NCBI GenBank assembly: GCA_965223295.1
Contig: CBDCWC010000002.1
Location: 320,001-384,000, forward strand
Direction: 5' to 3'
Source: Nitrospirales bacterium
GTDB lineage: Bacteria > Nitrospirota > Nitrospiria > Nitrospirales > UBA8639
Length of the DNA stretch: 64,000 nt
Below, one piece after another: positions 38,888 to 60,272 of the stretch. Under the pieces are notes generated by a model. It saw nothing but the letters and a program-made list of their open reading frames with translations, was not told the DNA's origin and made no database searches. The stretch's first letter is position 1. Each line of letters starts with the position of its first letter. The position numbers were made by a program, and so were the translations under genes.

Positions 38888-38969
38888 GTGGTTTAAACAT
38901 GAGAAGGGCAACAAGATCAAGAGTATGAAACCCACATCTTAGACACTTTTATCTACAGGAGGCAAAATC

Positions 38970-39467: not shown

Positions 39468-39489
39468 TTTATATGGGAAGAAAACGCAT

Positions 39490-39720: not shown

Positions 39721-39751
39721 AAATCACCTGTGGAGAAAAGGAGTGAGTGGT

Positions 39752-39952
39752 ATGAAGCATTTTATTGCTATGCTTATACTGACCTTCTTCACATCCAGCA
39801 TGGCCGTCACCAAAGATCTTCCTCCCAACACGGCAAAGATCGTGTACGTTCATGCTGGTCCCGAAGTGATCAGGACACAACTAATGCGATCGCCTGTGCC
39901 GTATGCGGGCTTTAGCCAAAGTGACCTGCATGATGCCCTAGCTTCAAATTAG
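39752..39952 (+). CDS. Small hypothetical exported protein (66 aa)
   Basis: AAGGAG RBS; signal peptide MKHFIAMLILTFFTSSMA. Confidence 0.45.
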   Translation: MKHFIAMLILTFFTSSMAVTKDLPPNTAKIVYVHAGPEVIRTQLMRSPVPYAGFSQSDLHDALASN

Positions 39953-40004
39953 CGGGCGGCCACCACTCAAAAATAACGAACGCTCTGGAGAGAAAGGAGG
40001 CGTT

Positions 40005-40451
40005 ATGAAAACACAATATTTGGGACATGTCGTGTTTTATGTCAAAGATTTGGAACAGTCGCTCAAATTTTATCGAGACCTTTTAGGATTTCAAGAAGTT
40101 GGACGTGTGTTTGAGGGAAAGGCTGTGGCTTTAACCACGGGCCGGACTCACCAGGAGCTGCTCTTGATTCAAGTGGGTGATGTCCCAGGGCCTGCATCTG
40201 GTTTGCGTCGAGGCCTGTACCATATTGGGCTTAAGATTGGTGATAGCCTAGATGAACTCCGGTCTGCTAAAAAAGAAATTGAACAAGCTGGAATTTCAAT
40301 TTCTGGAATGAGCGATCATACGGTAAGTCAGAGTCTCTATCTTCATGATCCTGATAGAAATGAAGTCGAGTTGTATGTTGATGATCCGGCAAGCGATTGG
40401 CAGAGGAATCCCATGTTGGTCTTATCGCCTATTAAGCCTCTTGTGTTGTAA
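40005..40451 (+). CDS. VOC-family (glyoxalase/catechol dioxygenase-like) protein
   Basis: LGHVVFYVKDL, GLYHIGLKI, SDHTVSQSLYLHDPDRNEVELY. Confidence 0.9.
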   Translation: MKTQYLGHVVFYVKDLEQSLKFYRDLLGFQEVGRVFEGKAVALTTGRTHQELLLIQVGDVPGPASGLRRGLYHIGLKIGDSLDELRSAKKEIEQAGISISGMSDHTVSQSLYLHDPDRNEVELYVDDPASDWQRNPMLVLSPIKPLVL

Positions 40452-40558
40452 GCAATCGTGTGATGATTCTAGACGCCGGATGGCGGTTGAAGGGTTTGAA
40501 TGAAAATTTCGGCAATAGAACACGCTCATCTAGTTCAATTTTTTACACAGGCCATCTT

Positions 40559-44700: not shown

Positions 44701-44961
44701 TTCCGTCCTATTATTATGACATCAATGGCCTTTATCCTGGGCGTGATTCCTCTCGTGGTCGCCTCTGGAGCCGGTGCGGCGAGCCGCCATTCCATCGGTA
44801 CTGGAGTATTTGGAGGGATGTTAGCTGCCACATTTCTTGCGGTCTTTTTCGTTCCGTTCTTTTCTGTCGTGATCATGAAATTTCGGAAGGATACGCGAGA
44901 GGTTGATGAAGCACCTTATTTGACGGTCAAAGAAGCCCTTCAGCAACAAGAAGAATTGTAA
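41788..44961 (+). CDS. RND efflux inner-membrane transporter (HAE1, AcrB/MexB-like)
   Basis: FFIDRPIFA, GIVVDDAIVVVENVER, KNAILIIEFA, RFRPIIMTS. Confidence 0.95.
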   Translation: MSPQFFIDRPIFASVVSIMIMVVGLVAIQTLPVAQFPEITPPMVQIDADYPGASAEVVAESVARPIELQLPGIDNLLYYDSTSTNDGHMTMRLTFEIGTDVDIAQVQTQNRQKLAEPQLPPEVVRQGISVKKTSPNLLAVIVLDSDNPNHDAFFLSNYAILRVLDNIKRLPGVGDASVYGQQSYSMRIILDPVRMAQLQITPTDIATVVQEQNRNFPAGTLGREPALPATELTIPVITQGRLTEVKDFEELIVRALPDGSIVRLSDVARIELGAQSYNLEGQFNGESTALLITFLSPGANALETIGRIRTELKALTPAFPQGMTYDIPYDTTRFIEVSIKEVLQTLLEAMVLVLLVVFVFLQSWRATLIPALAVPVSLIGTFAGMEALGFSINTLTLFGMVLAIGIVVDDAIVVVENVERHMTQGGLSPKAAAKQAMFEVTGPVIAIVLVLSSVFIPVAFLGGITGELYKQFAITIALSVALSGLVALTLSPALCALVLKPQHEAPQGYWRLFNNSFDWVQQRYCAIVAVMLRHTALSTLVFAVLLLGTWGLLKVVPGSFLPEEDQGYFIVAAQLPDGASKQRTDSVLQELADFFGDDSAVYGTQALSGQNFIFNTRGSNSATMFVPLKPWDERTDPASHVKALIGRAYQKFAEITEGLVLAFNAPSIRGLGATGGFSLQVQDPSSREFSEFADAVQAFLEKAKEDSAIGNATSSFRVTAPRMYARVNRERAKALGIPISEVFDTMQAYFGNLYINDFVKFGRVYRVQTEAEPEYRSSPEDISKIYVRAQNGLSASMVPLNTVVTMELASGPDPVTHFNGFNTALVMGSAAPGFSSGQALDALERVAQEVLVPEGYSIDWSGISFQERKVGGQTTMILLLGLLMVFLVLAAQYESWSIPFAVLFAVPFGILGAVTAVWLRGLDNDIYFQIGLLTLIGLSAKNAILIIEFANELYHEGRSAVEAALEAARLRFRPIIMTSMAFILGVIPLVVASGAGAASRHSIGTGVFGGMLAATFLAVFFVPFFSVVIMKFRKDTREVDEAPYLTVKEALQQQEEL

Positions 44962-44962
44962 G

Positions 44963-46381
44963 ATGCCATTAATTTTCGTTTTTATGCTTATGGCTCTCAG
45001 TGGCTGTGCCGTTGGCCCTGATTATTCTCGGCCTGAGTTGTCAGTGCCTCAAGATTTCCAGCGAGCTGAAACGGCTAGCTCTGTCGAGTCACTAGCGAAT
45101 GTTCCCTGGTGGGAACTCCTAAAAGATTCGACTTTGCAAAAACTTGTTCATACGGCACTTGAAAAAAACAGGGATCTCCAGCAGGCGGTCGCAAGCATCG
45201 AAGAATTCGAAGCTCGTTTGTATGTGGCACGAACCGGTTTTGTGCCACAAGCCACAGGGAGCGCCAGATTTCCCGCTCTGGGGCGAACCAGTAACGGTGT
45301 CCGGTTTCCGGGTGCCCCTGGAACATTTAATTATTCCCTTCAGGGCGATTTATCCTGGGAACTGGATGTGTGGGGGCGCATTCGCCGATCAACAGGAGCG
45401 GCATTAGCTGATCTGTTAGCTCGTGAAGAGAATCAACGAGCGGTTGTGCTTAACTTGGTGAGTGGTGTGGCCCAATCTTATTTTGATTTATTGCAATTCG
45501 ATATGCAGCTCGATATTGCTAAAGAAACCCTTGAATCCTGGGAGGAATCGGTAAAGATTGCACAGGCGAGGCTGAAAAGCGGCGTCACCTCACGGCTTGA
45601 TGCCGATCAATTCGAAGGTGAGCGAGCGAATGCGGCGGCGCGAGTGGCACAGCTTGAACGTTCGACGATTCAGAAAGAAAATGAGCTGAGTGTTCTTCTT
45701 GGCCAGCACCCCACTCCCATTGCCAGAGGGACGCGTCTGACCGATCAAGTGGTCCCACCTGAAGTGCCCGCGGGGTTACCCTCAGAATTATTGCGTCGTC
45801 GTCCAGATATTGTGCGAACGGAACATGAGTTGGTGGCGGCCACGGAACGAATCGGAGTGGCGAAGGCTGACCGCTTTCCAAAGATTAGCCTCACAGGTAT
45901 TCTGGGCGTGGCGAGCCCCCGGCTTTCCAAACTAATTGGATCAGACACCAAATTTGGTGCGGCTGGGTTCGACATTTTGGGTCCGGTGTTGAATGCCCAA
46001 ACACTGGGTTTTCAGCAAGATGTGGCGGAAGCCCAAGCCAAGCAAGCTCTCGCGCAATACGAGCAAACAGTTCTTGTGGCATTCAAGGAAGTAGAGGATG
46101 CGTTAATTGCGGTGCAGACTGCCCGGCGGCAGCGTCAGGCTCAAGTTGAGCAGGTGGAGGCTCTGCGTTCAGCTCTGCGGCTTTCGAATCTTCGCTATAA
46201 GGGTGGAGTCACGAGTTACATTGATGTCCTCATTGCTAAGCGCAGTTTGTTTGAAGCCGAATTGTCTCTGGCCGAAACTCACCGTCTTCACCTGGTCTCG
46301 ATAGTCCAGTTGTACAAGGCCTTAGGTGGAGGCTGGCAAGTCGAAAACTCACCAAATATGACGGCAAAGAGTACACGCTAG
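44963..46381 (+). CDS. RND efflux outer membrane factor (NodT/OprM-like lipoprotein)
   Basis: LSGCAVGPDY; WELDVWGR; PSELLRRRPDI; LYKALGGGW. Confidence 0.95.
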   Translation: MPLIFVFMLMALSGCAVGPDYSRPELSVPQDFQRAETASSVESLANVPWWELLKDSTLQKLVHTALEKNRDLQQAVASIEEFEARLYVARTGFVPQATGSARFPALGRTSNGVRFPGAPGTFNYSLQGDLSWELDVWGRIRRSTGAALADLLAREENQRAVVLNLVSGVAQSYFDLLQFDMQLDIAKETLESWEESVKIAQARLKSGVTSRLDADQFEGERANAAARVAQLERSTIQKENELSVLLGQHPTPIARGTRLTDQVVPPEVPAGLPSELLRRRPDIVRTEHELVAATERIGVAKADRFPKISLTGILGVASPRLSKLIGSDTKFGAAGFDILGPVLNAQTLGFQQDVAEAQAKQALAQYEQTVLVAFKEVEDALIAVQTARRQRQAQVEQVEALRSALRLSNLRYKGGVTSYIDVLIAKRSLFEAELSLAETHRLHLVSIVQLYKALGGGWQVENSPNMTAKSTR

Positions 46382-46510
46382 AGGTTGTCTAAAAAATCGT
46401 TCACTGTCCTGGTCTTCTCGATGTTTCAGGAGCACGGCGAGAAGCTGTATGATTCTTATGGCTGCCTTTATTGAAAGGCCTATTGGCTAGTCCTCCTACT
46501 TGTATTAATT

Positions 46511-47326
46511 TCAGAGACCGAACTTCGACTTGATGCCTTTCAAAAAGGTGGTGTCATCGGCTACCTTGCGTTGGGCTATCATCTGAGCAGCATCGTCACC
46601 GGCTGTGTAGCGAAGCTGGTTGCTTCCGTCAGTTGCTGCTTTGTAAATCACTTCAGATACGACAACAGGTTCCGACCCCGCCTCACCAAGTGGTCCCATT
46701 GCCTCGGTTGCCTTGCCAACTAACGCTTGATACTCCTGTATGGTCTCATCATTCGAAAAATCGAATGACCGGCCACCAAAATCGGTTTTAACCATGCCTG
46801 GCTCGACAATCTTGACCTTCACTCCAATCGCTTCCATCTCAAAACTGAGTGCTTCTGACAATCCCTCCACTGCGAACTTTGACCCGTGATAAAGCGTGCC
46901 AAGAGGAAACCCTACTTTGCCTCCAACTGACGCAATGTTGATGATGATTCCCGAGTGGTTTCTTCGAAAGTGAGGTATGATGGCCTTCGTGGTTTCCAAA
47001 AGCCCGATTACGTTTACGTCGAATTGCCGTCGAATCTTCTCAACGGGTACTGCTTCTAGCACGCCATAGGCTCCGTACCCAGCGTTGTTGAGCAGCACGT
47101 CAATTTTTCTGAAACGCTCGATTCCTGCCGCAACGGCTTGGTTAATCGAGGCACTGTCTAGAACGTCCAGTCTTTCAACCAGAACGTTGTCGTACTTTTT
47201 GAGGTCTTGCTCAGCTTCGGGCTTCCGCATGGTCGCAATGACGTTCCACCCCTTTTTCTGAAAGTATTGTGCTGTCATGCGACCGATGCCGCTGCTTGCT
47301 CCGGTAATCAGAATAGTCTTGGCCAC
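46511..47326 (-). CDS. Short-chain dehydrogenase/reductase
   Basis: TGASSGIG, NNAGYG, YHGSK. Confidence 0.92.
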   Translation of the reverse strand: MAKTILITGASSGIGRMTAQYFQKKGWNVIATMRKPEAEQDLKKYDNVLVERLDVLDSASINQAVAAGIERFRKIDVLLNNAGYGAYGVLEAVPVEKIRRQFDVNVIGLLETTKAIIPHFRRNHSGIIINIASVGGKVGFPLGTLYHGSKFAVEGLSEALSFEMEAIGVKVKIVEPGMVKTDFGGRSFDFSNDETIQEYQALVGKATEAMGPLGEAGSEPVVVSEVIYKAATDGSNQLRYTAGDDAAQMIAQRKVADDTTFLKGIKSKFGL

Positions 47327-47378
47327 GGTCTCTATCTCCTCACGTACAGGATTGATGTGTTTCTATTTAGTGCTGTTG

Positions 47379-48986
47379 TTAAAAGTCCTTGCGTTTCAAT
47401 TTGCCAACCAGTAAAACCCAAAGCATGGCCCCGATACGACTCCACGATGGCCGGATTGCATATTTAGTGGCCTGTTTGCAAAGGTCATAAAAGTTTCGCT
47501 TGTTGGTCAGCAGCATGTGGCCTGGCGACATGAAAGAGCAGGTAACAATTGACTTGTCCACGTTTTCGAAACTCATCAGATTTCCGAAGTTCCCGTGACC
47601 TGAAACAAACTCCTTACCTTCTTCGTTGCCGCCCCAGGTCAGATACGGATTCATGAAAACAAAGGGCGGCATGGTGTTCACCGCAATCCCGCCATATTCA
47701 AGGTTGGTAACTGCCTGGTCGACAATTCCCTGATGCTTTGTCTGGGTGTCATCATCGACCAGAATGCAGGCCCCAAGAGTTCCGAGCAGCTTGGAATTAC
47801 AGAAACCTACCGCTTGGGAAAGGAACGCTGAAGCATCTGCTGGGGTGTCTAAGGCAACCTCACCAAAGACCTGGCAGAACGCTTCATGGGTAACGCCAAA
47901 ACCGTTTTCGGGAATGTCCTCAATGAGCTGCACCTCAGAGTTGGCTATGGCGCCGTCTTCAGGACGAATGACCTTGCCGCTGGGATGTTGCATGCGAAAC
48001 TCGGCAAATATTTTCTCAGTTCCAGGATAGTAGGTAGTTGATCCAGGCGTTCCCTCACGTATAGCTTTCTCCATTGCATCTAGAAAGTTACGACGTTGTG
48101 GCCAATTGCGACACGTCACGAGCGTTTGGACCCGGCCGCAAACGGCTCCGCCGTTTAGTTTTCCCATCGTGACAATCTGCATCGCGTGATGCTCTATTTC
48201 TTTCTCGGTCCACGGTCGGTCTCCAGGAATAATGATGCAGGGATTGTTTCCCCCGCATTCTGAAATCAATTCCGCTGGTGAACTGGCCATGATAGCCTTC
48301 GCGGTGGAACTGCCGCCAGTGAAGTAAATCTGCTTGAGTCGGTTATCGCCAGTGAGATCTTGCCCTCCATCGTGATTGCAAAAACTGACCGCACGGTAAT
48401 CTACAAGTGGCTTGAGTATCTCTTCCCAAACGGCATCGCTTTCGGCGTTTAGATGATGCGGTTTGTGCACCACAGCACAGTTCTCAATAAATAAGGCTCG
48501 AATCATCTCGAATGATGACCCATAGTTGCCCGCACCAAGTACAGCGATAATGCCGCCTTCTTTATCCAACGGGTTTACTTGCTTGGGCTCACCTTTGACT
48601 CGCAAGATTCCCTTCTGGTCGGAATTGAGAAGCTTGTCCTTTGCCTGAATCGGAAAAACGACCAAGTCATACAGTCCATCCGCAACTTTGTGTGTTTCCT
48701 TCGGTTGCGGCATCTCCCCTTTCATCAATAGTTGATAGACGTCGATGCAAGCGCTAACATTGCTTGCCAGCGGGACGACGGTGGCCTGCATTGAGGTTCC
48801 CACCTGATGAATGTTGGATGATTCGTTCGGCGTGAGTTTCTTCATCCGGCAATCGGCCTCGACCAATTTGGGCCATTGGCGTTCAATGCTCTGCTGAACC
48901 TCTTTCAGCAGTCGCAGCTTCTCTTTGGCTGAAGTCTTCCTCCACTTCTCTGGTTCTACCCAATCGAGGGCTTCGTTTGCTTTCAT
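47379..48986 (-). CDS. Aldehyde dehydrogenase family protein; start reassigned to ATG 48986
   Basis: GAGNY, FTGGSSTA, SECGGNNP, catalytic Cys in GAVCG, EAFCQV; the longer ORF would overlap tetR. Confidence 0.8.
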   Translation of the reverse strand: MKANEALDWVEPEKWRKTSAKEKLRLLKEVQQSIERQWPKLVEADCRMKKLTPNESSNIHQVGTSMQATVVPLASNVSACIDVYQLLMKGEMPQPKETHKVADGLYDLVVFPIQAKDKLLNSDQKGILRVKGEPKQVNPLDKEGGIIAVLGAGNYGSSFEMIRALFIENCAVVHKPHHLNAESDAVWEEILKPLVDYRAVSFCNHDGGQDLTGDNRLKQIYFTGGSSTAKAIMASSPAELISECGGNNPCIIIPGDRPWTEKEIEHHAMQIVTMGKLNGGAVCGRVQTLVTCRNWPQRRNFLDAMEKAIREGTPGSTTYYPGTEKIFAEFRMQHPSGKVIRPEDGAIANSEVQLIEDIPENGFGVTHEAFCQVFGEVALDTPADASAFLSQAVGFCNSKLLGTLGACILVDDDTQTKHQGIVDQAVTNLEYGGIAVNTMPPFVFMNPYLTWGGNEEGKEFVSGHGNFGNLMSFENVDKSIVTCSFMSPGHMLLTNKRNFYDLCKQATKYAIRPSWSRIGAMLWVLLVGKLKRKDF

Positions 48987-49047
48987 GTTAGAACTCCCGA
49001 GGTTCACATGTTTCGCTGGACGGTCGATGCTGCTTGCGATTACACTG

Positions 49048-49087
49048 ATAGCCGACCGACGGTCTGGAGTATAGCCGACCGACGGTC
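49048..49087. promoter_or_regulatory. Tandem palindromic operators, likely for the adjacent TetR
   Basis: ATAGCCGACCGACGGTC repeated at 49048 and 49071, each containing the palindrome GACCG-A-CGGTC, in the divergent intergenic region. Confidence 0.75.
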
Positions 49088-49120
49088 GAATATCAATGCC
49101 TCCATGGAAAACTGCTTTGC

Positions 49121-49750
49121 ATGAGCTGGGAACGAGCACGAAAACCCGAACAGAAGGCCGACAGGGTCGAACAAATACTGATGGGGGCAGCTGAGCTCTT
49201 CGATGCCGGTGAGTTTTCAGATATTTCGATGCGTGGCCTCGCCGAGAAGTCCCAAATGGGCAAGGCAAGCCTCTATCAATATTTCGAGACGAAAGAGGAG
49301 GTGTTTGCCTCGCTCTACTGCCGAGAACTCGAGTTGTGGCTTACATCCGTCGAACAACGGTTAGCAAGAATGCGAAAGCTTACTCCTGCCCGCCTGGCTC
49401 ACACTCTAGCAACTATTCTGAAGGAGCATCCGAGATTCTGTCGCCTGACAGTGTTGTTCTCCAGTGTCCTGGAACGCAATTTATCTGACCACGCGATAGT
49501 GACATTCAAATCATCTCTGGTGGAACCCATGAACCGCTTTGTCCAGGTATTGACCTCAGTTTATCCTGGGTTCTCGAAGAATGATGCGGCAGAGTTCTTA
49601 TTTCAGCATCATGCGGTTATCGCTGGATTATGGCCACTGGCGCATCCTTCGCCTCAGGTAGATGCTGTGCTCGATTATAAGGAATTCCAACACTTTCGCG
49701 TCGACTTCTTTCCGCTGATTGAACGGACCCTTCAGAGATTGCTGGTATGA
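49121..49750 (+). CDS. TetR-family transcriptional regulator
   Basis: ISMRGLAEKSQMGKASLYQYFETKEEVF helix-turn-helix. Confidence 0.92.
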   Translation: MSWERARKPEQKADRVEQILMGAAELFDAGEFSDISMRGLAEKSQMGKASLYQYFETKEEVFASLYCRELELWLTSVEQRLARMRKLTPARLAHTLATILKEHPRFCRLTVLFSSVLERNLSDHAIVTFKSSLVEPMNRFVQVLTSVYPGFSKNDAAEFLFQHHAVIAGLWPLAHPSPQVDAVLDYKEFQHFRVDFFPLIERTLQRLLV

Positions 49751-49866
49751 CTCTGTTGGCCAACACAACAGAAGCATCCCTCTTGGAAAACTTTGTTATG
49801 ATGCTTTGCTCAAGTAGAAATCTAGTCTAATAATGGTGCGCAAGTGGCCATAGACATTTCTCATCA

Positions 49867-50133
49867 GGGAATGTTGAAAAAAGTCGCCGCCTACTCCGCC
49901 GGAGTAACTCGATGGGCTACGAAGGCCGGGAGCGGCGTTCCCTGCCTTCGCCGGAGCGGTTTCGCGCAGGCAGGTCGCCCTTTTCCCGTGCTCACGTAAT
50001 ACCAGTACGCTCCATGCGGAACAATGGCTGCGGCCTTTCTGGACGGACTTTTTTGATCATTCCCGTCGCATCGAGGTCTCCACTGCACTGAAAGCGTTTT
50101 TGTAACTTGAAATTGAATTATTCAACAACCCCC
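49867..50133 (+). mobile_element. MITE-like repeat carrying two nested mini-insertions
   Basis: Ends GGGAATGTTGAAAAA / TTTTTGATCATTCCC (50064) / TTATTCAACAACCCC; homologous to 58616-58770 and to the reverse complement of 61813-61931. Confidence 0.7.
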
Positions 50134-50372
50134 ATCATTACGACACTAAGATCACTACGCATTGGTGAGAAATGTACTTTTTGCATGGAAAGTGAGAGCA
50201 TTGTGCTCTGATGCTGTTCGCCAAGGGACACGTATTAACAACAGGTGTAGACTGGGAGACGTGCCGGAAGGCTGACTGTGACTCAAGACATACAAATAAA
50301 AATTTTATGTGTAATAATCTTTCCTTCACTCTCCCAAGCATAGTAATTCTTTCATGAATTTAAGGGTTCTCC

Positions 50373-50756
50373 GTGATAGAAATTGATCACTTAGACCATT
50401 TGGTTCTCACGGTTACTGATATTGAAAAGACCGTAGACTTTTACGAAATGGTTTTAGGCATGAAGCAAGTTTCATATGGTGAAGGTCGCATAGCCTTATC
50501 ATTCGGGAATCAGAAAATTAACTGGCATCAACTTGGTCAAGAATTTGAGCCAAAAGCTGAGAATGTAGGTGTGGGTAATGTTGATCTATGTTTTATATTA
50601 AAAACGAACATTGAGGAAGCCCAAAGATATCTTGAGCAATGTGGGATTAAAATTATAGATGGGCCTGTAGCACGAACTGGAGCGGGCGGTAAAATGACAT
50701 CACTCTATTTTAGGGACCCGGATCTGAATCTGATCGAAGTCTCGAAATACGTGTGA
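50373..50756 (+). CDS. VOC-family protein (GLOD5-like)
   Basis: LDHLVLTVTDI, FGNQKIN, GPVARTGA, SLYFRDPDLNLIE. Confidence 0.9.
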   Translation: MIEIDHLDHLVLTVTDIEKTVDFYEMVLGMKQVSYGEGRIALSFGNQKINWHQLGQEFEPKAENVGVGNVDLCFILKTNIEEAQRYLEQCGIKIIDGPVARTGAGGKMTSLYFRDPDLNLIEVSKYV

Positions 50757-50759
50757 GCA

Positions 50760-50789
50760 AATGACGACTATTGATCTCAAACGGGCCTT
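50760..50789 (+). repeat. Degenerate ~30-bp inter-gene site A
   Basis: AATGACGACTATTGATCTCAAACGGGCCTT; shares AATGAYGACT with site C; weakest copy. Confidence 0.35.
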
Positions 50790-50882
50790 CGCGTTTTATT
50801 CGATATAGCTGCGTTCCGCTGAATTTTTGCGGGATAAATAGTTGTTTCCGGGCTAAGATTTGTTATCACTATCGGAGCAAGT

Positions 50883-51263
50883 ATGGCTCACTATATCGAC
50901 GGATTCGTTTTGCCTATTTCGCGAGATCGCCTAGACGAGTATAGGCGTCTTGCTGAAGCAGTTGCAGATATTTGGAAGGAACACGGTGCGCTCGATTACA
51001 GGGAATATGTCAGCGACGACTTGATATTGGAGGGAACGCGCTCATTCATTGATCTCGCAGCCGCAACCGAGGGTGAAGCCATCGTGTTTGGATGGGTGGT
51101 ATTTGAATCTCGTGAGGCACGTGATTTAGCAAATAAAAAGGTCGCGGCAGACCCAAGAATGGCGGATTTGATCAATTCATCGAATTCAGGTTTTGATGCT
51201 AAACGGATGGCATACGGCGGGTTCCGATCGTTTGTTCTATCATCTAACGCCAGCGCCGGATAA
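50883..51263 (+). CDS. DUF1428-family protein
   Basis: YIDGFVLP, WKEHGALDYRE, DPRM, FDAKRMAYGGF. Confidence 0.88.
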   Translation: MAHYIDGFVLPISRDRLDEYRRLAEAVADIWKEHGALDYREYVSDDLILEGTRSFIDLAAATEGEAIVFGWVVFESREARDLANKKVAADPRMADLINSSNSGFDAKRMAYGGFRSFVLSSNASAG

Positions 51264-51360
51264 CAAATCGCTCCAATTACCGCGCTGCAGCGGACGTTTT
51301 TGGCCAAGACTCTGTCGAACAGCTTAAAACGATCGCCAAAGAGTCTATCGTCAGACAGTA

Positions 51361-51390
51361 AACTTCCAAGTTCCACCCAAAGCGGATATT
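51361..51390 (+). repeat. ~30-bp inter-gene site B
   Basis: AACTTCCAAGTTCCACCCAAAGCGGATATT; 15-bp core identical to 56407-56421. Confidence 0.6.
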
Positions 51391-51634
51391 CATTTTATAA
51401 TCATTAACAGTTCTGCGAATTACCAGAAGAAAACGGTCAAACTCATTAGACCTTCTTTTCATTTCCAACACGGCCCTCAAAGAAGGAAGCTCTACCTTTT
51501 AAGAAAACTCGAGTAAGGGTGTCTTTTATGGGGCGAAGATTGATGCCAAAACTTTCTCATTAGATTTTTCACAATGGTGGGCACCGAGAAAATTCCCAAA
51601 TGTCCTCGACTCACGTTTATGTCAATTCCCTTAA

Positions 51635-52921
51635 CAGAGGTGGCCAGATTTTTTTGAACAGTTAATGGTGTTGCTATAAGTGGATCGCTCCTGGTTGAAA
51701 TTAGGCCGCTCGGGGCTACGGCTGTTGCTGAAAATACACTTGATCTGGTGTCTGCCCTCCAAGACTCGAATGCGGACGGCGACTATTGTAAAACTGGAAA
51801 TAGCGTGTAAGTCCTGCTCTTGCCACTGAGACTGACTCATAGGCCCGTCAGTACACTTCTTCGTATTTCACCGATCGCCAGAGGCGTTCAACGAAGATAT
51901 TGTCTCGCCAAGCTCCACACCCATCTATACTGAAGCAAATACCTTGGGCCTTGAGAAACCCTACAAAGACGAGACTGGTGAACTGACTCCCTTGATCAGT
52001 ATTCAAGATGTCCGGTGTCCCATATTGAGTGACGGCCTCTGCAACCACCTCATGACAGAACTGGACGTCCATGGTAATTGACCTGCGCCAGGCAAGGACG
52101 CGGCGCGTAGACCAATCGACCACGGCCACCAAGGAGACAAAGCCTTGGGCCAGCGGGATATACGTGATATCCATGGCCCAGACCTGGTTCACGCGAGTAA
52201 TTGCCAGAGATCCCGCAACCAATACGGATACACCTGATGGGTTGGATGGCGCCTGTGGTTCTGGGCTTGCGATACAGGGCTTCAAACCCCATTGGCTTTC
52301 ATTAGCTTGCCCACATGCTTAGGCCCAACTGTCAGACCTTCCTGTCGCAAGAGCGCTTGAAGCATCCGGGCTCTAGCAAATGGGAACTCAAGATGCAACT
52401 GATCAATCCGATTCATGAGGCACTGGTCCTCTTCGGAGATCGGCTTGGGCCGATAATGGAGACAACTGCGGCTGATCTCCAGGATCTTCGCCTGTTTGGT
52501 TAGTGAAATCTGCTGCGTGCGGGCAATCATCGTTTTGCGCTCAGCATGTCCGCTTTGGTAAGCGCGTTTTCTAAACAATCATTTTCCTAGGTCAACTCGC
52601 CAATCTTCGCATGAAGGTTTTTCACATCAACGGGGGCCGGAGTTGACTCGCTTCCTTCAAACACCCCTGAGGCGCGTTCCAGGAGCAAGGTCTTCCATTG
52701 GGTAATTGGATTCGGATGGACATCGAAACGTTGAGCGAGTTCCGCCACTGTCTGCTCGCCCTTGATGGCGGCCAGGGCCACTTTGGCCTTAAAGACGGGG
52801 GAATGGTTCCGCCTAGGTCGTCTGCTCATAACTACGCTCCTTTCATCAGTAGCCGGATCATGCCACCTTGTGCGGAGCCTATCCTCTTAAGCCCTTGTGC
52901 AGTTTCTTGGGACCACCTCTA
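51635..52921 (-). mobile_element. IS3-family insertion sequence, inactivated
   Basis: OrfA SRRPRRNHSPVFKAKVALAA; OrfB DDE motifs WAMDITYI, NTDQGSQFT, ERLWRSVKYEEVY; imperfect terminal inverted repeats with an AGAGGTGG core at both ends. Confidence 0.88.
51718..52829 (-). pseudogene. IS3 transposase orfA/orfB with premature stops and frameshifts
   Basis: Fragments 52587-52829, 52282-52578 and 51848-52285; in-frame TGA at 51848-51850 is followed by RAYESVSVARAGL...RPHSSL. Confidence 0.85.
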
Positions 52922-53073
52922 CAAAACTCAATCTATTACTTTAGTAGAGGCTTTAAGTGTTGTTATGATAAAACCAAACAATTGGATAAATTCCTCCTTC
53001 TCGCTACAGCGTGGGAGTTGATGAAACGTTAATTTCTGGGGTTCTCAGAGTTGGTTATTTTTTAGAGGTTGAG

Positions 53074-54273
53074 ATGTTTAATTTTAGGGATATGACGATA
53101 GGGAAGAAGGTTGGCATGGGTTTTGGGGCCATCACACTTATTTTAATGGGAGTGGTGTTACTCACCATTCAGCAAGTAAAAACGATGGAGGTCATTACTA
53201 AGAGAGTTGTCGACCTTCGAACTCCCACGGCTCATGCCAGCCTTATGATGTTAAACGGAATCAACCATTCCCTGGCTTCGCTGCGTGGGTGGATTCTCCT
53301 GGGAGATCCCAAATTCCAAACAGAACGAGCTCTTGCCTGGGCAGAACAAATCAACCCATCCCTGAAGCAGATGCATCAGCTTGCTCCCCACTGGACAGAT
53401 CCAGAAAATAAGGTCCGGTTAAAAACCATTGAAAAAGAAATCGATAATTTTCACAAGGCTCAACAGAAGATCGAAGATATAGCACAAACCCCGGAAAATT
53501 CTCCTGCGCAAAAAATTCTATTCGATCAAGCGGAACCGTTAGAAAAAACCATCGTGGCAACCGTTTCTAAAATGATCAAGCAGAATATGAAAGGCACAAA
53601 TACTCCCCAAAAGAAGCGATTGGTGGAAATTCTCGCTACGATAGAGACGACAACTAGTCTAGCTTTGGAAAGAGCCGACGAGTTTTTGCTATCTGGCAAA
53701 CAAGAATTTAAAAAGGAATCTCTGGAAAACTGGGGGAAAAGTGCTGCGTCTATGGAAGCATTAAAGGACAATGCAAACACCTTTAGTAAAGAGCAGTTGA
53801 AGAATTTTGCATCCCTGCAAGATGCACTCAATCAGTTCGATCCGTTACTGAAAGAAATTATCCGCATTCGGTCCGGAGAAGATTGGAATCGAGCTCATTA
53901 TTGGGTGAAAACTGAGGCTGCCCCTTTAGCCTTTCGAATCAAGGAACTCTTGAATGAAATGGCTGCGGTTCAGGAACAATTGCTGGAAAATGATGTTGAG
54001 ACGATTTCTAGCAGCACTCATTATTTAATTGTTCTGTTAGTGGCATTGTTTGTGACGGCGGCACTGATCAGCGGCCTTTTGGGAGCAAACATTACTCGTT
54101 CAATTAGCGAACCAATCCTGGATGTCTGCAATTTGGCAGATGAGCTGGCGCATGGAAATGACACAAGAAAACGCCTCCCAGTTCATTCCCGAAATGAATT
54201 GGGCACCCTGAGCCAAAGTTTCAACCAACTGTTGGATCGATTGCAAAAAGAGAAGTCACAAGACGAAGACTGA
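53074..54273 (+). CDS. Membrane sensor: TM, helical periplasmic domain, TM and HAMP, with no signalling domain
   Basis: MTIGKKVGMGF N-terminus typical of chemoreceptors; ITRSISEPI...NELGTLSQSFNQLL HAMP, then stop. Confidence 0.8.
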   Translation: MFNFRDMTIGKKVGMGFGAITLILMGVVLLTIQQVKTMEVITKRVVDLRTPTAHASLMMLNGINHSLASLRGWILLGDPKFQTERALAWAEQINPSLKQMHQLAPHWTDPENKVRLKTIEKEIDNFHKAQQKIEDIAQTPENSPAQKILFDQAEPLEKTIVATVSKMIKQNMKGTNTPQKKRLVEILATIETTTSLALERADEFLLSGKQEFKKESLENWGKSAASMEALKDNANTFSKEQLKNFASLQDALNQFDPLLKEIIRIRSGEDWNRAHYWVKTEAAPLAFRIKELLNEMAAVQEQLLENDVETISSSTHYLIVLLVALFVTAALISGLLGANITRSISEPILDVCNLADELAHGNDTRKRLPVHSRNELGTLSQSFNQLLDRLQKEKSQDED

Positions 54274-54396
54274 CTTGTTGCCTTAAATTAAATGGCCCCA
54301 TGCGCGCAAGGCATGATGTCTTTTGCAATTGGAATTCCGAGTTCACTCCCCTCCCATCAGGGTGGTTTTACAGCACTACAGGCTACGATAGTAGAA

Positions 54397-55995
54397 TCAC
54401 TCATCGAATGATGTCATTTTAGCTCGCACGGACAACTCAAGACCGTTTTCTCTGAATTTCCTTTTCCACTCGTCAATCTTAGACCTGATCCTACGGTCCA
54501 CAAACTTCGTTTCTGTCATATCCAAGGTAACTCGCTTCCCTTCCAGAAAGAAACGATCAAGTTGTTTTCTCAGAGGAATCCAAGAACTGAAAATAATGGA
54601 ACCTCGTAAAAGAATCGTGACAGACTGATCCCTTTCATGAATGATCTTGGCATTCAATCGAAGCATGGATCCCCCACGAATAAAACGGATGACCAACATG
54701 ACTCCTATTCCAATGGCTAACCCTTTTAAGAGATCAGTCGCAAGTACACCTAATATGGTAGAGACAAAAATAATAAACTGGTCTGTTCCCTCACGATACA
54801 CAGCCACAAACTCGTTGGGAGAAGCCAGGCGAAATCCTGTGATGACCAATAACGCGGCCAAGGCAGCTAGAGGAATTTGATTAATGATCCCTGGGATCAA
54901 TGCCACACATATCAATAAAAACATTCCATGGTAAAAATTCGCAAACCGGGTTCTTGCCCCATTATCAATATTGGCTTTACTTCGAACAATTTCAGAAATC
55001 ATGGGCAACCCGCCAATAAAAGCAGACAGGGTGTTAGCGATACCGGTCGCCAACAAGTCTCGATCCAGATTTGTTTGTCGACCCCACGGATCGATCCCAT
55101 CAATAGCCTTTGCACTGAGAATCCCCTCCAAACTTCCAATGATCGCAAAAAGAACCGTATATTTAATTCCAGTCTCCGTGGTTATGCCTGAAAAATCCGG
55201 AAAGGTGATGGCATTTAGCAAATTACCTGGAACATTGACTAAAAACTTTTCGCCGAGTTCGTAGATGTGATTATTGAAGGTATATGACCCCTTCTCCCCA
55301 ATTCCTAAAAATATTGCTATTGGAACGGTGATCATTAACATCAACATGGGTGCAGGAATGACCTTTACTTTGGGATTTTGTATATAGTTATAAGCCATCA
55401 CAATCGTAAGACCTAGAATTCCGATTGGTGCAACTTTCGGGTTCATGTTCATGACAAAGGAAGGGATCCTAGCGAGTAACTCTAGAGGACCACCCTGTGG
55501 ATTCAGCCCCATCAAGACAGGAAATTGTTTGGCGATGATGATGACTCCAATGGAAGCCAGCAAACCGTGAATCGCCGCTTTCGGAAAAAGCTTGACTAGG
55601 ATTCCTACGCGAAAAAGTCCGAGGATAATTTGGTAGATGCCTGCCACAACCCCAACACCCAGCGCCAAACGATAGGCCTGAAAATCCTTGGCCGGGTCTT
55701 CTCCACCCGTAAAACCAAAATCCTGAACACAACCTAATGCAATAACAATCAAACCAGCAGCCGGTCCCTTAATCGTCAGTTCTGAATTGGTCAGGAAGGT
55801 GGCAACTAAACCGCCAACAATTGCTGTAAAGATGCCCGCTACCGCAGGATATCCTGAAGCCAGAGAAATTCCCAGACACAGCGGCAAAGCAATAAGAAAA
55901 ACTAAAAATCCAGAGAGGATATCGTTTTGCGCATGGGCTTTAAACCCATCAAAATTCCCCTTGGGAATTTCAGTAGATTTGGATGACAGACTCAT
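54397..55995 (-). CDS. SulP/SLC26-family anion (possibly bicarbonate) transporter with a short STAS domain
   Basis: SGFLVFLIALPLCLGISLASG, GPAAGL, GGLPMISEIVRS, NQIPLAALAALL. Confidence 0.92.
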   Translation of the reverse strand: MSLSSKSTEIPKGNFDGFKAHAQNDILSGFLVFLIALPLCLGISLASGYPAVAGIFTAIVGGLVATFLTNSELTIKGPAAGLIVIALGCVQDFGFTGGEDPAKDFQAYRLALGVGVVAGIYQIILGLFRVGILVKLFPKAAIHGLLASIGVIIIAKQFPVLMGLNPQGGPLELLARIPSFVMNMNPKVAPIGILGLTIVMAYNYIQNPKVKVIPAPMLMLMITVPIAIFLGIGEKGSYTFNNHIYELGEKFLVNVPGNLLNAITFPDFSGITTETGIKYTVLFAIIGSLEGILSAKAIDGIDPWGRQTNLDRDLLATGIANTLSAFIGGLPMISEIVRSKANIDNGARTRFANFYHGMFLLICVALIPGIINQIPLAALAALLVITGFRLASPNEFVAVYREGTDQFIIFVSTILGVLATDLLKGLAIGIGVMLVIRFIRGGSMLRLNAKIIHERDQSVTILLRGSIIFSSWIPLRKQLDRFFLEGKRVTLDMTETKFVDRRIRSKIDEWKRKFRENGLELSVRAKMTSFDE

Positions 55996-56393
55996 GGATA
56001 TGAGCTTCCCCTATTGTAGACTTTAAAGCTAATCCGTAATGCTGGTAATGCTTGATCTTCCCCTAGATATCGGACACCGAGTGACGAATTATATAATAAT
56101 TTGAAAGGAGATGTTGAATAAAGCGAGCACGGGCACATCGAGAAAGCCTGTTATGCTTCCGTATGAAATCTTCATGATAATTTTGATGCCATTGATATCG
56201 GAGGCGGTTTTTGATGTGGAAAACACACGTCAAATCTGTTGTTAACGAAACCTGAGATCTCACCTTTTCTGAGCAAGCACAGCCAAGAAAGAAGTGGTAG
56301 GAACCTTTTCTTTCAATTTGAGTTCTCCGCAAACAAAGTAATGAGTTACATTTCTGTTCAGTTTGTACTTTGAAAGATAATACGTGATTCATA

Positions 56394-56422
56394 AATGATG
56401 ACTCTAACCCAAAGCGGATATA
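56394..56422 (+). repeat. ~30-bp inter-gene site C
   Basis: AATGATGACTCTAACCCAAAGCGGATATA, upstream of the cupin gene. Confidence 0.6.
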
Positions 56423-56464
56423 CACGGAGCCGAGTTATTCGGCAATTTGATAAAGGAAAAAAGG

Positions 56465-56941
56465 ATGGCTGGTAAAAAGATAAAATCCTGGGAAGGAAGT
56501 ACCTTTAAGGCCGCTGCTCTAGGTCTTTTCAAAGACTTGGACGAATATTCATACACACTTCCCGCTTTGTCGATGACGGTTAATGGGAAAGTCTTCTTGA
56601 ATGAATTGCTCGGATTGACTGGTAGTGAGATCTCGTTCAATAAGCTCCCGCCCAAGAAATCAATGCCGTTCTACCACAAACATCATAAGCACGAAGAAGT
56701 ATATATCTTTTTGTCTGGGAAGGGGCAATTTCAGATAGATGAAAAGATTTTTCCGGTCGAACAAGGAACGGTTGTGCGTGTTAACCCTGAAGGTGAACGA
56801 ACTTGGAGAAATGTATCCGATTTGGAAGACTTAATCTTTATTGTGATACAAAGTCCTGCGGGACAGATCGAAGCGACCAAAACCACTGACGGAGTTGCTG
56901 TTGAGAAAAGAGTCAGTTGGGTCAACAAAGAAAATACCTAG
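56465..56941 (+). CDS. Cupin-domain protein
   Basis: PFYHKHHKHEEVYIFLSGKG; GTVVRVNPEGERTWRN. Confidence 0.88.
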   Translation: MAGKKIKSWEGSTFKAAALGLFKDLDEYSYTLPALSMTVNGKVFLNELLGLTGSEISFNKLPPKKSMPFYHKHHKHEEVYIFLSGKGQFQIDEKIFPVEQGTVVRVNPEGERTWRNVSDLEDLIFIVIQSPAGQIEATKTTDGVAVEKRVSWVNKENT

Positions 56942-56964
56942 TTGCAGCAGTGATGCTCAGCAAG

Positions 56965-56996
56965 AATGCATACGAATTCGACCCCAAGCGGTCATT
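56965..56996 (+). repeat. ~30-bp inter-gene site D
   Basis: AATGCATACGAATTCGACCCCAAGCGGTCATT with AATG...CATT palindromic ends, between two small ORFs. Confidence 0.5.
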
Positions 56997-57018
56997 ATAT
57001 AGATTACGCCATATCACA

Positions 57019-57366
57019 ATGAGTAACAGAGAAGAAAACTATTGCTGCGAAGGAAATTCGCACAAAGATGTTTCAATCCGGTATGAAAAAATTGACGCAA
57101 TACAATGGTCATGGGTTCTTGAGAGTACGTGGCATGCCACAGAATCAAAAGTAAAGGATGATTTGGCTAGTGAAGAAGAAATAGTTATTCATTCTGATAC
57201 TTTGCTCATTTCATATTGCCCATTTTGTGGAGAAAATCTTACGCTAATACAAAAACACATGGTAATAGAATCTTCAGTTCCGGCCGAACATACGAAGGCT
57301 GAAAATCGGCAGAGCCTATCTTGTTCTATCCGTTCACATCTAAATCGAATCTTGGCAATTTCATAA
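57019..57366 (+). CDS. Small hypothetical protein with CC and CPFCG motifs (possible Zn-binding)
   Basis: YCCEG ... ISYCPFCGENL. Confidence 0.55.
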   Translation: MSNREENYCCEGNSHKDVSIRYEKIDAIQWSWVLESTWHATESKVKDDLASEEEIVIHSDTLLISYCPFCGENLTLIQKHMVIESSVPAEHTKAENRQSLSCSIRSHLNRILAIS

Positions 57367-57473
57367 AAACGTCTAAGGTTCTGGCAATATGTATTTGAAA
57401 CCTCCAGCAAATATGGAGATACTTTTACAGTCATGAGTGCTCTGTGTTGTGACCTATTACGAGGAGGCTTTCA

Positions 57474-58430
57474 ATGGCGTTCAAGATCTCCAAATCTTTA
57501 TGGCTGAAAATTGGATTCCTGACATTCACGTTGACCGGGGTTTTTCTTGCTACCCTGGGACAAATTCCTCTTGCCGTCTCTCAACCGGTAACCATTCCGG
57601 TGGGCAAGATTTCTGGGCCAATTCCCATGGATGCCGCGAATCCTGTGTGGGAATCTGTGCCCGGTGTAGTGGCACCGCTGAGCGGTCAAACGATTACAAC
57701 CCCCATGCACCCGAACATTTCTGTCAAAACCGTCATGATCAAAATGGCCACGAATGGGAAAGAGATTGGAGTGTGGGCGAATTGGGGAGATCAAACACAA
57801 AACAATACCACGATTGGTCCTCAAGATTTTCGTGATCAAGTGGCGGTGCAATTCCCCGTGCAGACGGCTGGTGCTCCTCCGTTCCAATGTATGGGCCAAT
57901 CTGGAGGAACGGTCAACATTTGGCGGTGGAATGCTGAATGGCAAAAAGATTTAGGCCGAGGAGTAGCTGGCATGTGGGATGTCGATAATCAATATCCTTC
58001 CATTGCCTGGGACTATTACTATGAGGAACCTGCTGGGGGTGTGACGTATCCTGACCGAATTGGACGAAGCCTTGGACCATTTAATGAAGGGATTTGGTCT
58101 GGGAATATCATGTCTGATCCTGACATGCGCATTGGGTCTGTGGAAGATCTCAATGCTAATGGCTTTAGTACATTGACCACCCAAGCTTCACAGAATGTGG
58201 TAGGGAATGGATTATGGGAACCATATGGTTCGCTCAAAGGAGGTTGCTGTAGTGGGCCAACTTGGCGTGTGGTTATGAAACGGAGCCTGGCAACAGATGA
58301 TCCTAACGATGTCCAGTTTACGGCAGGCGGAAGCTTTCCCGTGGCATTTGCTGTATGGGATGGCTCGAATGTAGAGCGAAACGGGATGAAAGGTATTTCG
58401 ACTTGGTTTACGGCGCAGATGCCAAACTAG
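57474..58430 (+). CDS. nxrC: Periplasmic heme-b gamma subunit of the DMSO-reductase type II family; Nitrospira-type nitrite oxidoreductase gamma subunit candidate
   Basis: GAGGAGG RBS; signal peptide; QDFRDQVAVQFP, PFQCMGQ (Met ligand), NIWRWNAEWQ, ANGFSTLT, FAVWDG..ERNGMK (Lys ligand), as I recall for Nitrospira NxrC. Confidence 0.8.
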   Translation: MAFKISKSLWLKIGFLTFTLTGVFLATLGQIPLAVSQPVTIPVGKISGPIPMDAANPVWESVPGVVAPLSGQTITTPMHPNISVKTVMIKMATNGKEIGVWANWGDQTQNNTTIGPQDFRDQVAVQFPVQTAGAPPFQCMGQSGGTVNIWRWNAEWQKDLGRGVAGMWDVDNQYPSIAWDYYYEEPAGGVTYPDRIGRSLGPFNEGIWSGNIMSDPDMRIGSVEDLNANGFSTLTTQASQNVVGNGLWEPYGSLKGGCCSGPTWRVVMKRSLATDDPNDVQFTAGGSFPVAFAVWDGSNVERNGMKGISTWFTAQMPN

Positions 58431-58615
58431 CAATCTGAGAATTTCACGGGAACAGCCAAGAAAATTTCTTCTTGCGCAAGTATTTACCAGTCCAACACAC
58501 AAATCATGTGGGGAAGCATGTCTCAGCTTCCCCACGGCCTAGATTACAAATCTGACTCCGCGATTTTTCAATCAGGTCTTCATTTTCCCTTCTCTTTAGG
58601 AGCGAGGTTTCTTGT

Positions 58616-58770
58616 GGAAATGTTGAAAAAAGCCGCCAGCGGCGTTCCCTGGCTTCGCCGAAGTGGCTTCGCGCAGGCGAGCGGGCTGTTTTGACCATTC
58701 CCATCGCATTAAAGTCACCATGACCCTTGAAGGCTTCTCGTACCTTGAAATTCAATTATTCAATAGTCCC
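58616..58770 (+). mobile_element. MITE-like repeat with one nested insertion and an internal deletion
   Basis: GGAAATGTTGAAAAAAGCCGCCAGCGGCGTTC...TTGACCATTCCC...TTATTCAATAGTCCC, homologous to 49867-50133. Confidence 0.7.
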
Positions 58771-58955
58771 TTTATCTCGATTTGAGACGCCTCCAAAGTT
58801 TAAGCAACTACAGATCCTCGCGTACTGTGCTTTGCAAAATTTCAGGAAAATTTTTTGCATTGAAATGATCGCGATCATTGTCTGTCTGTTCACCTCAGTG
58901 CGAACATCATCTAACTCTATGTGCTCATATGTTTGATCTTCTACAACAGAAGAAC

Positions 58956-60272
58956 ATGAACATTCACGTCTGGCTTACTGCATGGAAACGTCTGATCACC
59001 TTTTTCGTCGTACCTGTGCTTTGTTGGGGTGCTCTTTCCAGTTGCAGTCTCCTTGCTTTACAAAAAAATGTCGAAATTTATCAGCAATATGTTCGTGTCA
59101 GTGGTCGGCTGGAGAATCCGTCTTCAGAGAAGAAGCCAGTGATCGTATTTCTGTATCAAGTCCAGGGCAAACAAAAGCAAATCGTGAGCTATGGCATATA
59201 TCATAACCCGGACCGGTTTCAATTTATGGTCTTACCTGGACAGTATTTCATTGAAGCGTTTGAAGATGCGAATCAAGATCTCATGTATCAAGTTCATGAG
59301 TGGGCTGGGTATTATGGTTCTCCCTCTGTCATTACGATGCAGCCAGGCCAAGACCAACTGAATCTGGATGTCACACTTCAACCTCCGGGTGTCACTCGAT
59401 TAGAAGAGTTTCCCAATCTTTCTTCTCTTGCCAGTCAAAGCAGGTTGCGACCATCTCACCTGCGTTTTGGAGAAGTTGTGACACTGAACGATAGTCGTTT
59501 TGCAAAAGAAAAGGGACGTGTAGGTCTGTGGGAACCTTTGCGTTTTATGGATGAGGTCGCCAGTGGCCTTTTTCCTCTGAAACCGTTTGATTCAGAGAAA
59601 ATTCCCGTCATCTTTGTTCATGGGGGAGGGGGGACTCCACGGGAATGGGCCGCCATTATTGAAAGGATGGATAGAGAAATTTTTCAACCTTGGCTGTTTT
59701 ACTATCCGTCAGGAATACATCTGGATGATTCCACCGAGTTGTTTTGGCAGAGTATGTCCCAATTGTCGCTGACCTATAAATTTCCAAAGCTTATTATTGT
59801 GGCGCATAGTATGGGAGGGATGATTGCGCGGGCAGCTATCAACCGTACTATTCAAAAAGGTCGAGGACATGAATTCCCACTGCTTTTTGTGACGCTATCG
59901 ACGCCATGGGGAGGTCATCAAGGTGCGCAAATGGCTTTGGATTATTCTACAATAGGAGTGATTCCATCCTGGATTGATCTTGCCCCAGAAAGCCCTTTTC
60001 AACAAAAACTTTTCGAAACGCATCTGCCTCCGGCTATTCATCATTACCTGTTCTTCAGTTATAAAGGTCGTCGCAATTTTTTTACACAAGGAAATAATGA
60101 TGGAGCGGTTTCGCTGGCAAGCCAACTGCACGAGAAAGCTCAGAGTTCGGCGGTCAAAGTCTTGGGGTTCAATGAAGACCACGCCAGCATCCTGACATCT
60201 CGGACTATGATTGTTCGTTTAAATGAAATTATGAAAAACTTTGTCACAGTCAGATTGCAAACTAAGCCATAA
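58956..60272 (+). CDS. Alpha/beta-hydrolase lipoprotein (lipase/esterase-like); start uncertain
   Basis: Lipobox LSSC; VIFVHG; AHSMGG nucleophile elbow; NDGAV; EDHASIL. Confidence 0.85.
   Translation: MNIHVWLTAWKRLITFFVVPVLCWGALSSCSLLALQKNVEIYQQYVRVSGRLENPSSEKKPVIVFLYQVQGKQKQIVSYGIYHNPDRFQFMVLPGQYFIEAFEDANQDLMYQVHEWAGYYGSPSVITMQPGQDQLNLDVTLQPPGVTRLEEFPNLSSLASQSRLRPSHLRFGEVVTLNDSRFAKEKGRVGLWEPLRFMDEVASGLFPLKPFDSEKIPVIFVHGGGGTPREWAAIIERMDREIFQPWLFYYPSGIHLDDSTELFWQSMSQLSLTYKFPKLIIVAHSMGGMIARAAINRTIQKGRGHEFPLLFVTLSTPWGGHQGAQMALDYSTIGVIPSWIDLAPESPFQQKLFETHLPPAIHHYLFFSYKGRRNFFTQGNNDGAVSLASQLHEKAQSSAVKVLGFNEDHASILTSRTMIVRLNEIMKNFVTVRLQTKP

Follow-up and report, generated by a model that had tools for sequence, protein, structure and literature searches.

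The region from about 50.3 to 57.4 kb of the DNA analysed here (the window, a 64-kb stretch corresponding to C2:320001-384000 of the 3.78-Mb genome of a Nitrospirales bacterium, referred to as G000; positions without a contig prefix are those of the window) is, in our judgement with reasonable probability, a fossil array of five gene modules, which are separated by decayed asymmetric palindromes and which would have been moved by a small recombinase of 208 amino acids (aa). The family of sites to which these palindromes belong is real, and across the genus its members form same-strand intergenic arrays between patchily distributed accessory genes. A first-pass annotation of the window had proposed that four sites in this region (A, B, C and D, in their order along the window) are relic junction sites of a system of gene modules other than integrons, and this core idea is borne out by the same-strand arrays, by breaks of homology which fall inside the sites, and by the lack of features of the integron integrase (IntI) or of its attC sites.

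All four site strings are present as written, at 50760, 51361, 56394 and 56965 on the + strand, and site A starts 4 nucleotides (nt) past the stop codon of a VOC-family gene (open reading frame (ORF) 50373-50756). The flanked genes are likewise small, encoded on the + strand and, based on a Pfam scan, of the identities described earlier. The exact 15-mer ACCCAAAGCGGATAT is indeed common to B and C, with an extended match at 17 of 18 positions, and in the whole genome it occurs at these two places only. By itself this identity is weak evidence and not beyond chance, because the window contains 8 same-strand exact pairs of 15-mers, compared with a mean of 1.18 in shuffled sequences. The string AATGAYGACT, which had been pointed out in A and C, is found 24 times in the genome and is due to this uninformative alone. 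As both of these similarities are unremarkable on their own, evidence from outside the window was needed for the claim that these sequences are sites.

Such evidence is provided by the loci of relatives with the same block of sensor and SulP genes that lies between B and C in the window. These loci contain the same arm, and their contexts reveal a larger, imperfectly palindromic site, which in its intact form consists of a left arm ATGWCCGCTTTTGGCCG, a centre of 4 to ~60 nt and a right arm CGACCCAAAGCGGACAT. The arms are inexact complements (TTTTGGCCG opposite CGACCCAAA), so that the site has a direction. In G004, three co-oriented small genes just downstream of the block are each followed by such a site, and the same is seen in G015. 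With a sequence-only model of the right arm (R1), matches at E<=1 were obtained in 47 of the 50 genomes of the genus (0-19 per genome), where they are clustered, and in 12 of the 14 sources searched all of them are on one strand. Most of the sites (28 of 34) lie outside ORFs, compared with a share of 26% for non-ORF DNA (binomial 1e-11); the remaining six overlap only ORFs of 74-112 aa, of which the five included in the Pfam scan showed no family (the sixth, in locus L054, was outside that scan). The cargo between the sites includes methyltransferases, GNAT acetyltransferases, ankyrin, flavodoxin-like, SDR, TetR, SnoaL, TIR and AAA_13 proteins, whose genes are found on either strand, one or two per interval, in modules of up to 5 kb. 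Read against these intact sites, those of the window are decayed members of the same family of asymmetric palindromes. The conserved arm of the family is limited in B, C and D to the last 15-17 nt, and the first 14 nt of B, as this site was drawn in the first-pass annotation, lie outside it. It was also observed that in 7 of 39 site contexts (in loci L046, L050, L053, L009, L048 and L047) the right arm is directly followed by GAGGAAAT, which may be a ribosome-binding site travelling with the downstream module.

The window was searched, with filters off, with a second model of the right arm (R2) that was built from 29 arms of other genomes only. Sites B (14.4 bits, E 0.0026), C (13.4 bits, E 0.0056) and D (11.7 bits, E 0.021) are among its four best matches, and the next match after these four scores 7.2 bits; the model thus recovers three of the four sites and misses A. 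The third-best match (13.0 bits, E 0.0076) lies inside an IS3 element on the opposite strand (52544-52558 (-)). A second copy of this element carries the same arm match of ~13 bits at G000:C3:431082-431096 (-), within the transposase reading frame, and this match is probably due to chance. A similar explanation could be extended to the sites themselves, i.e. that they represent a chance likeness or an ordinary regulatory motif (an operator or terminator) of unrelated genes. In its favour, the shared 15-mer is one of the 8 such pairs in the window, the genome-wide E-values of B (0.15), C (0.33) and D (1.2) are marginal when taken singly, the right arm of C lies 43 nt before the start codon of the next gene, and that of D ends 23 nt before one. 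However, 11 matches at E<=1.21 are found in the genome where ~1 is expected, other genomes and metagenome contigs show the same arm where their modules break, and no T-run is seen after the arms. We therefore consider this explanation very improbable. A search for known RNA families (Rfam) in 49000-59500 at E<=0.1 also gave no match.

The comparisons that carry most information are those in which the homology between two loci breaks inside a site, and they cover A, B and one site of another genome, as the genes flanking C and D (a cupin gene and an ORF with a CPFCG motif) are without relatives in the 49 other genomes of the genus. The VOC gene has a paralog in the same genome (86% DNA identity, G000:C3:877196-877602), and the alignment of the two begins ~10 nt ahead of the start codon, covers the gene up to its stop codon and includes the first 17-19 nt of A (~50362-50778). 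The module that follows, which carries a DUF1428 gene, is 90% identical over 524 nt to a sequence in G059:C31, and in this case the match covers 50776-51298. The counterpart of A in G059 is a clear canonical site, whose right arm is homologous to that of A, whereas its left arm, its centre and the upstream DNA are different. Since the homology to the VOC paralog ends, and that to G059 starts, within A, this site reads as a true junction and a chimera, in which the left arm and centre (50760-50776/8) come from the VOC module and the right arm (50777-50789) from the DUF1428 module. For site B, the match between the window and a sediment-metagenome contig of run X4 begins precisely at 51375, where the right arm starts, and the contig sequence before this point ends in a canonical left arm and centre; the identity between B and C also starts at the boundary of centre and right arm. 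The third case is seen when the five-site array of G052 is compared with the rest of the genus. The block after its site 5 recurs in G016, where it starts precisely at the inner edge of the right arm (query position 6334) behind a different left arm and centre, and the block before site 5 recurs in G024:C33, where the left arm is kept and the divergence occurs in the centre. Based on the breaks at A, B and G052 site 5, a module would begin with a right arm, carry at least one gene and end with a left arm and its centre, and the exchange would take place where the centre meets the inner edge of the right arm. Homologs lacking the site, and differences between loci that do not break at sites, had been named in advance as observations which would speak against the proposal. 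Among close relatives the opposite of both is found, as site A is preserved in a clearer copy in G059, with its 90%-identical DUF1428 module, and the breaks fall inside sites. For the ankyrin-repeat cassette of the G052 array, the matches to other genomes extend over the coding part only, and no adjoining site was found in G001 or G059. A related sequence (75% DNA identity to L050 2007-2728 of this array) is also present at 37025-37746 of the window, where no adjoining site was found.

In one respect the earlier account of the array needs to be revised. It had been suggested that the array was later split by a block consisting of the IS3 element and the sensor and SulP genes. However, the sensor and SulP genes themselves form one of the modules of the mosaic: their block is present at 88-91% identity in four other genomes (G006, G016, G009 and G004), each time in a different context, and its start at the right arm of B, behind a canonical left arm in the X4 contig, likewise identifies it as a module rather than a splitter. 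The IS3 element has a 98% identical copy at G000:C3:430427-431458, and copies in G016 match 51636-52921. The G009 copy of the block lacks it, as do contigs of runs X4, X3 and X9, one X3 contig joining 51617 to 53039 (parts of the window without cover in these three runs were not counted as absence). As judged from these comparisons, only the IS3 (51636-52921) is a later insertion, which entered the third module. The possibility that B and C are att-like direct repeats bounding an inserted 5-kb block was also considered and rejected, because the sequences flanking the two 15-mers are unrelated and the arm of B belongs to the block elsewhere.

In agreement with the first-pass annotation, which had noted no recombinase in the window, genes of the Phage_integrase family are found at 6 places in the genome, none of them in C2:320001-384000. 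A candidate enzyme is instead found within an array of G009, where an ORF of 208 aa (P0001) encodes a protein consisting of the Phage_integrase catalytic domain only (PF00589, 76.7 bits). Copies or pseudogenes of it at 74-100% identity are present in 8 of the 50 genomes of the genus. In 5 of them, an R1 site among the matches listed is found on the opposite strand, 55-63 nt before the recombinase gene starts; in G062 a site is found 60 nt beyond an N-terminally truncated match to P0001, and for G020 and G015:C133 no adjoining site is among the matches listed. The gene is followed by the complement of a left arm, and with arms both before and after it the recombinase gene is located inside a site, antisense to it. 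The protein keeps the residues R..HxxR..H..Y, and its alignment to XerD and XerA is confined to their catalytic domains, that with XerD being colinear (153 vs 152 residues) without any insertion. It scores far below the cut-offs for the XerA, XerC, XerD, integron integrase and invertase families (e.g. 32.8 bits vs a cut-off of 265 for the integron integrase model TIGR02249). In size it is similar to FimB/FimE (~200 aa), from which it differs in its score against NF007371 (21.6 bits vs a cut-off of 222), and no invertible promoter segment is evident.

The P0001 family extends far beyond this genus. It is represented by 563 confirmed loci in species genomes, of which the best 80 are 67-85% identical and belong to Pseudomonas, Vreelandella/Halomonas, Paraburkholderia, Cupriavidus, Achromobacter and others. 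The family is widespread in Pseudomonadota, it is found in 402 plasmid records (including large plasmids of Pseudomonas aeruginosa and Cupriavidus), and it comprises at least 8000 protein clusters at E<=1e-20. Its members are annotated only as 'tyrosine-type recombinase/integrase', and the plasmid annotation around two relatives adds nothing to this. Of the 73 loci from other taxa with enough flanking sequence, an arm is present upstream of the gene in 38, downstream in 44 (mostly 32-58 nt past the stop codon) and on both sides in 28, compared with a background of ~6 and ~9 for the two sides. Based on these observations, the P0001-family recombinase is likely the enzyme of the sites, and those in the window are putatively the recombination sites of this particular recombinase. 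The copy in the genome studied here (C3:869943-870539) is a pseudogene with two in-frame stops, and no other small recombinase was found in this genome; C2:760594 was considered as a second one and rejected, because this locus encodes only a fragment (166 aa) of a phage-type integrase and has no sites in its vicinity. Since the recombinase gene is a pseudogene located on another contig, the array is probably frozen, i.e. a fossil.

The pseudogene forms part of a second flexible region, G000:C3:862000-882000 (L025), which comprises the pseudogene with a site, a copy of an IS1182-family element, a TetR gene, the VOC paralog, and a full palindromic site at C3:874379-874405. In at least 7 of 39 site contexts, which differ in their flanks, an element of this IS1182 family (DDE_Tnp_1_6 + DUF772) is located at the same point, after the CGACC of the right arm (L030 1518, L042 (G052:C26), L046, L047, L052, L009, and C3:870.6-872.2 kb of the present genome). 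Two left-end junctions were also seen, and GACC looks like a target duplication of 4 bp. The inferred crossover point of these sites seems to be the target of the element.

The location of the recombinase gene between inverted arms admits another interpretation, in which the sites are non-autonomous palindromes, comparable to miniature inverted-repeat transposable elements (MITEs) or repetitive extragenic palindromes (REPs), of a selfish element consisting of the recombinase only, while the modules were moved by ordinary horizontal transfer and homologous recombination. The gene with its arms does resemble a tiny transposon in many taxa, many of the metagenome contigs with the recombinase are merely 0.7-1.1 kb in length, as is expected of a repeated unit, and the compact sites of 30-55 nt resemble two joined ends. 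There is also a likeness to REP-associated tyrosine transposases (RAYTs), where the presumed enzyme gene similarly lies between inverted copies of a short palindrome that is itself found elsewhere in intergenic DNA. However, RAYTs are HUH Y1 transposases, whereas the present enzyme is of the Phage_integrase family, and the sites occur in ~10 copies per genome, as one-strand clusters in accessory arrays, rather than in hundreds of dispersed copies. Further, the insertion of whole palindromes does not predict chimeric sites such as A, B and G052 site 5, and this interpretation is in our view unlikely.

It is also conceivable that the sites are used by the XerC/XerD proteins of the host, as are the pdif modules of Acinetobacter plasmids, and that the small recombinase is a passenger. 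Two Xer-like genes are present in the genome (C3:415819-416625 and C3:852481-853287), arrays are found in genomes without the small recombinase, and a palindrome at 51276-51298 has an 8-6-8 layout. The pdif modules resemble those described here in being discrete and varied in gene content, in being bounded by short sites of a recombinase type, and in occurring in different contexts. However, pdif sites are 28 bp in length (11-6-11) and alternate in orientation, whereas the present sites are co-oriented in their arrays, with arms separated by 4 to ~60 nt instead of a fixed 6-nt spacer, and they are linked to a dedicated small recombinase, whose gene is bracketed by the arms across phyla. We thus give the involvement of XerC/XerD only a small chance.

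The similarities with integrons are more extensive. Both show imperfect palindromes, differing in length, between accessory modules which mostly hold a single gene and are patchy in distribution; in both the likely enzyme is a tyrosine recombinase, and some arrays lack a recombinase gene. The insertion of the IS1182-family element into the present sites likewise resembles that of the IS1111-attC group, whose members insert into the attC sites of integrons. It could therefore be asked if the array is a degenerate integron cassette array (a cluster of attC sites lacking an integron integrase, or CALIN) with unusual attC sites, as it too has small accessory genes in one orientation, imperfect palindromes in the intervals and the cargo typical of cassettes. 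However, no protein of the genome exceeds the TIGR02249 cut-off of 265 bits (the best score is 82.9 bits), and the region 50200-57500 contains, on both strands, no RYYYAAC/GTTRRRY pairs (a mean of 0.55 was obtained in 200 shuffles), in agreement with the first-pass annotation. The sites are 22-100 nt in length and fold no better than shuffled sequences: for single-strand DNA folds of 9 sites z ranged from -1.48 to +0.73, the arms being complementary but the stems short. The module limits lie between the centre and the right arm, and not at the outer G/TT of a 3' core where the integron break occurs. In addition, the present recombinase lacks the IntI-specific segment, its gene is found inside a site and not beside an attI, and the modules may hold genes on either strand and reach 5 kb. 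Based on these differences, a CALIN is an exceedingly remote explanation.

Several observations weigh against the interpretation of the region as a relic array of recombinase-borne modules. All of the evidence is comparative, and no recombination event was observed. An empty site was not found, and since none of 5 relatives shows synteny with the left flank (36000-50400), a precise gain or loss is not demonstrable. All three of the distant DUF1428 homologs (43-44% aa identity), as well as the only cupin relative found in the metagenomes (44% aa), are without a site within 1.5 kb. In G009 and G004, no recognisable site lies where the sensor-SulP block ends on the right, site A has no R2 match in the window, and the marginal genome-wide scores of B, C and D and the unexceptional folds, both noted above, belong here as well. 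Lastly, G014, G052 and G059 contain 15, 19 and 15 R1 matches, respectively, but no P0001 relative at E<=1e-10, and for these genomes the enzyme would have to act in trans, to have been lost afterwards, or to be a different protein.

If modules have been moved by the P0001-family recombinase, then the enzyme would bind both arms, two sites would recombine at the inner edge of the right arm, and a module would leave as a circle with one site, or would enter at a site. Because the centres differ in both length and sequence, an exchange of one strand is more plausible than a double exchange of the Cre/lox type, which needs matching spacers; as a guess, this one-strand exchange would take place at the right arm and would be completed by replication, as in integrons. 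A broader proposal, which we put forward tentatively and with somewhat less than even confidence, is that these sites and their recombinase constitute a second widespread gene-cassette system beside integrons, in which a 208-aa recombinase limited to a catalytic domain, and encoded inside its own site, captures modules in trans by one-sided exchange at the inner edge of the right arm, on chromosomes as well as plasmids, in organisms ranging from Nitrospirales-like bacteria to Pseudomonas, Cupriavidus and Halomonas, and for which an IS1182-family element has become specialised at the same point.

The coordinates of the features in the array are collected in Table 1.

Table 1. Modules, sites and genes of the putative fossil array (positions in the window)
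Feature	Position	Strand	Basis
Possible decayed right arm (TCTCCCAAGCATAGTAAT) ahead of the VOC gene (low confidence)	50330..50347	+	Residual similarity to the VOC paralog upstream of the start codon; no R2 match
VOC/glyoxalase-family gene, 127 aa, module 1	50373..50756	+	Pfam PF00903, 52.4 bits
Site A, probable chimeric junction	50760..50789	+	Limits of homology to the paralog and to G059; no R2 match
DUF1428 gene, 126 aa, module 2 (module spans 50776-51298)	50883..51263	+	Pfam PF07237, 105.4 bits
8-6-8-like palindrome ATTACCGC GCTGCA GCGGACGT T at the right end of the DUF1428 module	51276..51298	+	Sequence reading; G059 homology stops at 51298
Site B, family right arm 51375-51389, left end of the sensor-SulP module	51361..51390	+	R2 match; X4 contig
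Sensor-SulP module (module 3), interrupted by IS3	51375..56232		88-91% identity in G006, G016, G009, G004
IS3-family element, orfA + split orfB	51636..52921	-	Pfam HTH_Tnp_1, HTH_21, rve
Membrane sensor, 4HB_MCP + HAMP domains	53011..54273	+	Pfam
SulP-family permease, 532 aa	54397..55995	-	Pfam PF00916, 188 bits
Site C, short form, weak left arm AATGATGAC, right arm 56407-56421	56394..56422	+	R2 match; 15-mer as in B
Cupin_2 gene, 158 aa, module 4	56465..56941	+	Pfam PF07883
Site D, short form, AATG...CATT ends, right arm TTCGACCCCAAGCGGTCAT	56965..56996	+	R2 match
ORF with CPFCG motif, 115 aa, module 5, last of the array	57019..57366	+	No Pfam family

The modules differ in their distribution. 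The DUF1428 gene is present in 5 of the 50 genomes of the genus, and the cupin gene and the CPFCG ORF in this genome only; the latter two are 158-164 and 115-149 aa in length, respectively. Directly after the palindrome at the right end of the DUF1428 module is the sequence TTTTTGGCC, which may be the left arm that partners B. The right limit of the sensor-SulP module varies by genome between 56139 and 56232, and the match in G009 also covers 51401-51498 of this module. Site D is close to a site in G004 which ends in CCCGACCCCAAGCAGTCATT. The homology of relatives in the EB_dh region resumes at 57372, six bases past the stop codon of the last module.

Some other features were observed in and around this region. 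A dispersed repeat brackets the whole of it (49867-50191 and 58616-58865, 74-91% identical in pieces); this repeat has 252 BLAST matches in the genome, mostly of 50-100 nt, many copies of it are present in every genome of the genus, and a part of the family seems to be present inside the G052 array (L050 3987-4160). Many contigs from marine-sediment metagenomes carry relatives of the DUF1428 gene that are 90-95% identical to it (runs X3 and X9; window 50932-51419), and the summed metagenome depth over 50932-51419 is far above that of the neighbouring stretches. Upstream of the array, a 17-mer (ATAGCCGACCGACGGTC) occurs twice, 23 nt apart, inside an ORF resembling aldehyde dehydrogenase (49048-49087).

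In the accessible part of the open-access literature and bioRxiv, no description of these sites or of their enzyme was found. The terms searched have no occurrences in PMC8138268, and six arm strings were encountered in 4 papers, whose titles indicate unrelated subjects. The recombinase system thus seems to be undescribed. For the window itself the result is a modest one, a decayed array in a genome with no working recombinase gene of this family. If the interpretation presented here is correct, the capture of genes by site-specific recombination would not be confined to integrons and Xer modules, and the mechanism would become testable with a small enzyme and a site of ~40 bp. In addition, knowledge of the sites and of their crossover point would let the mosaics of flexible genomes be parsed into modules.

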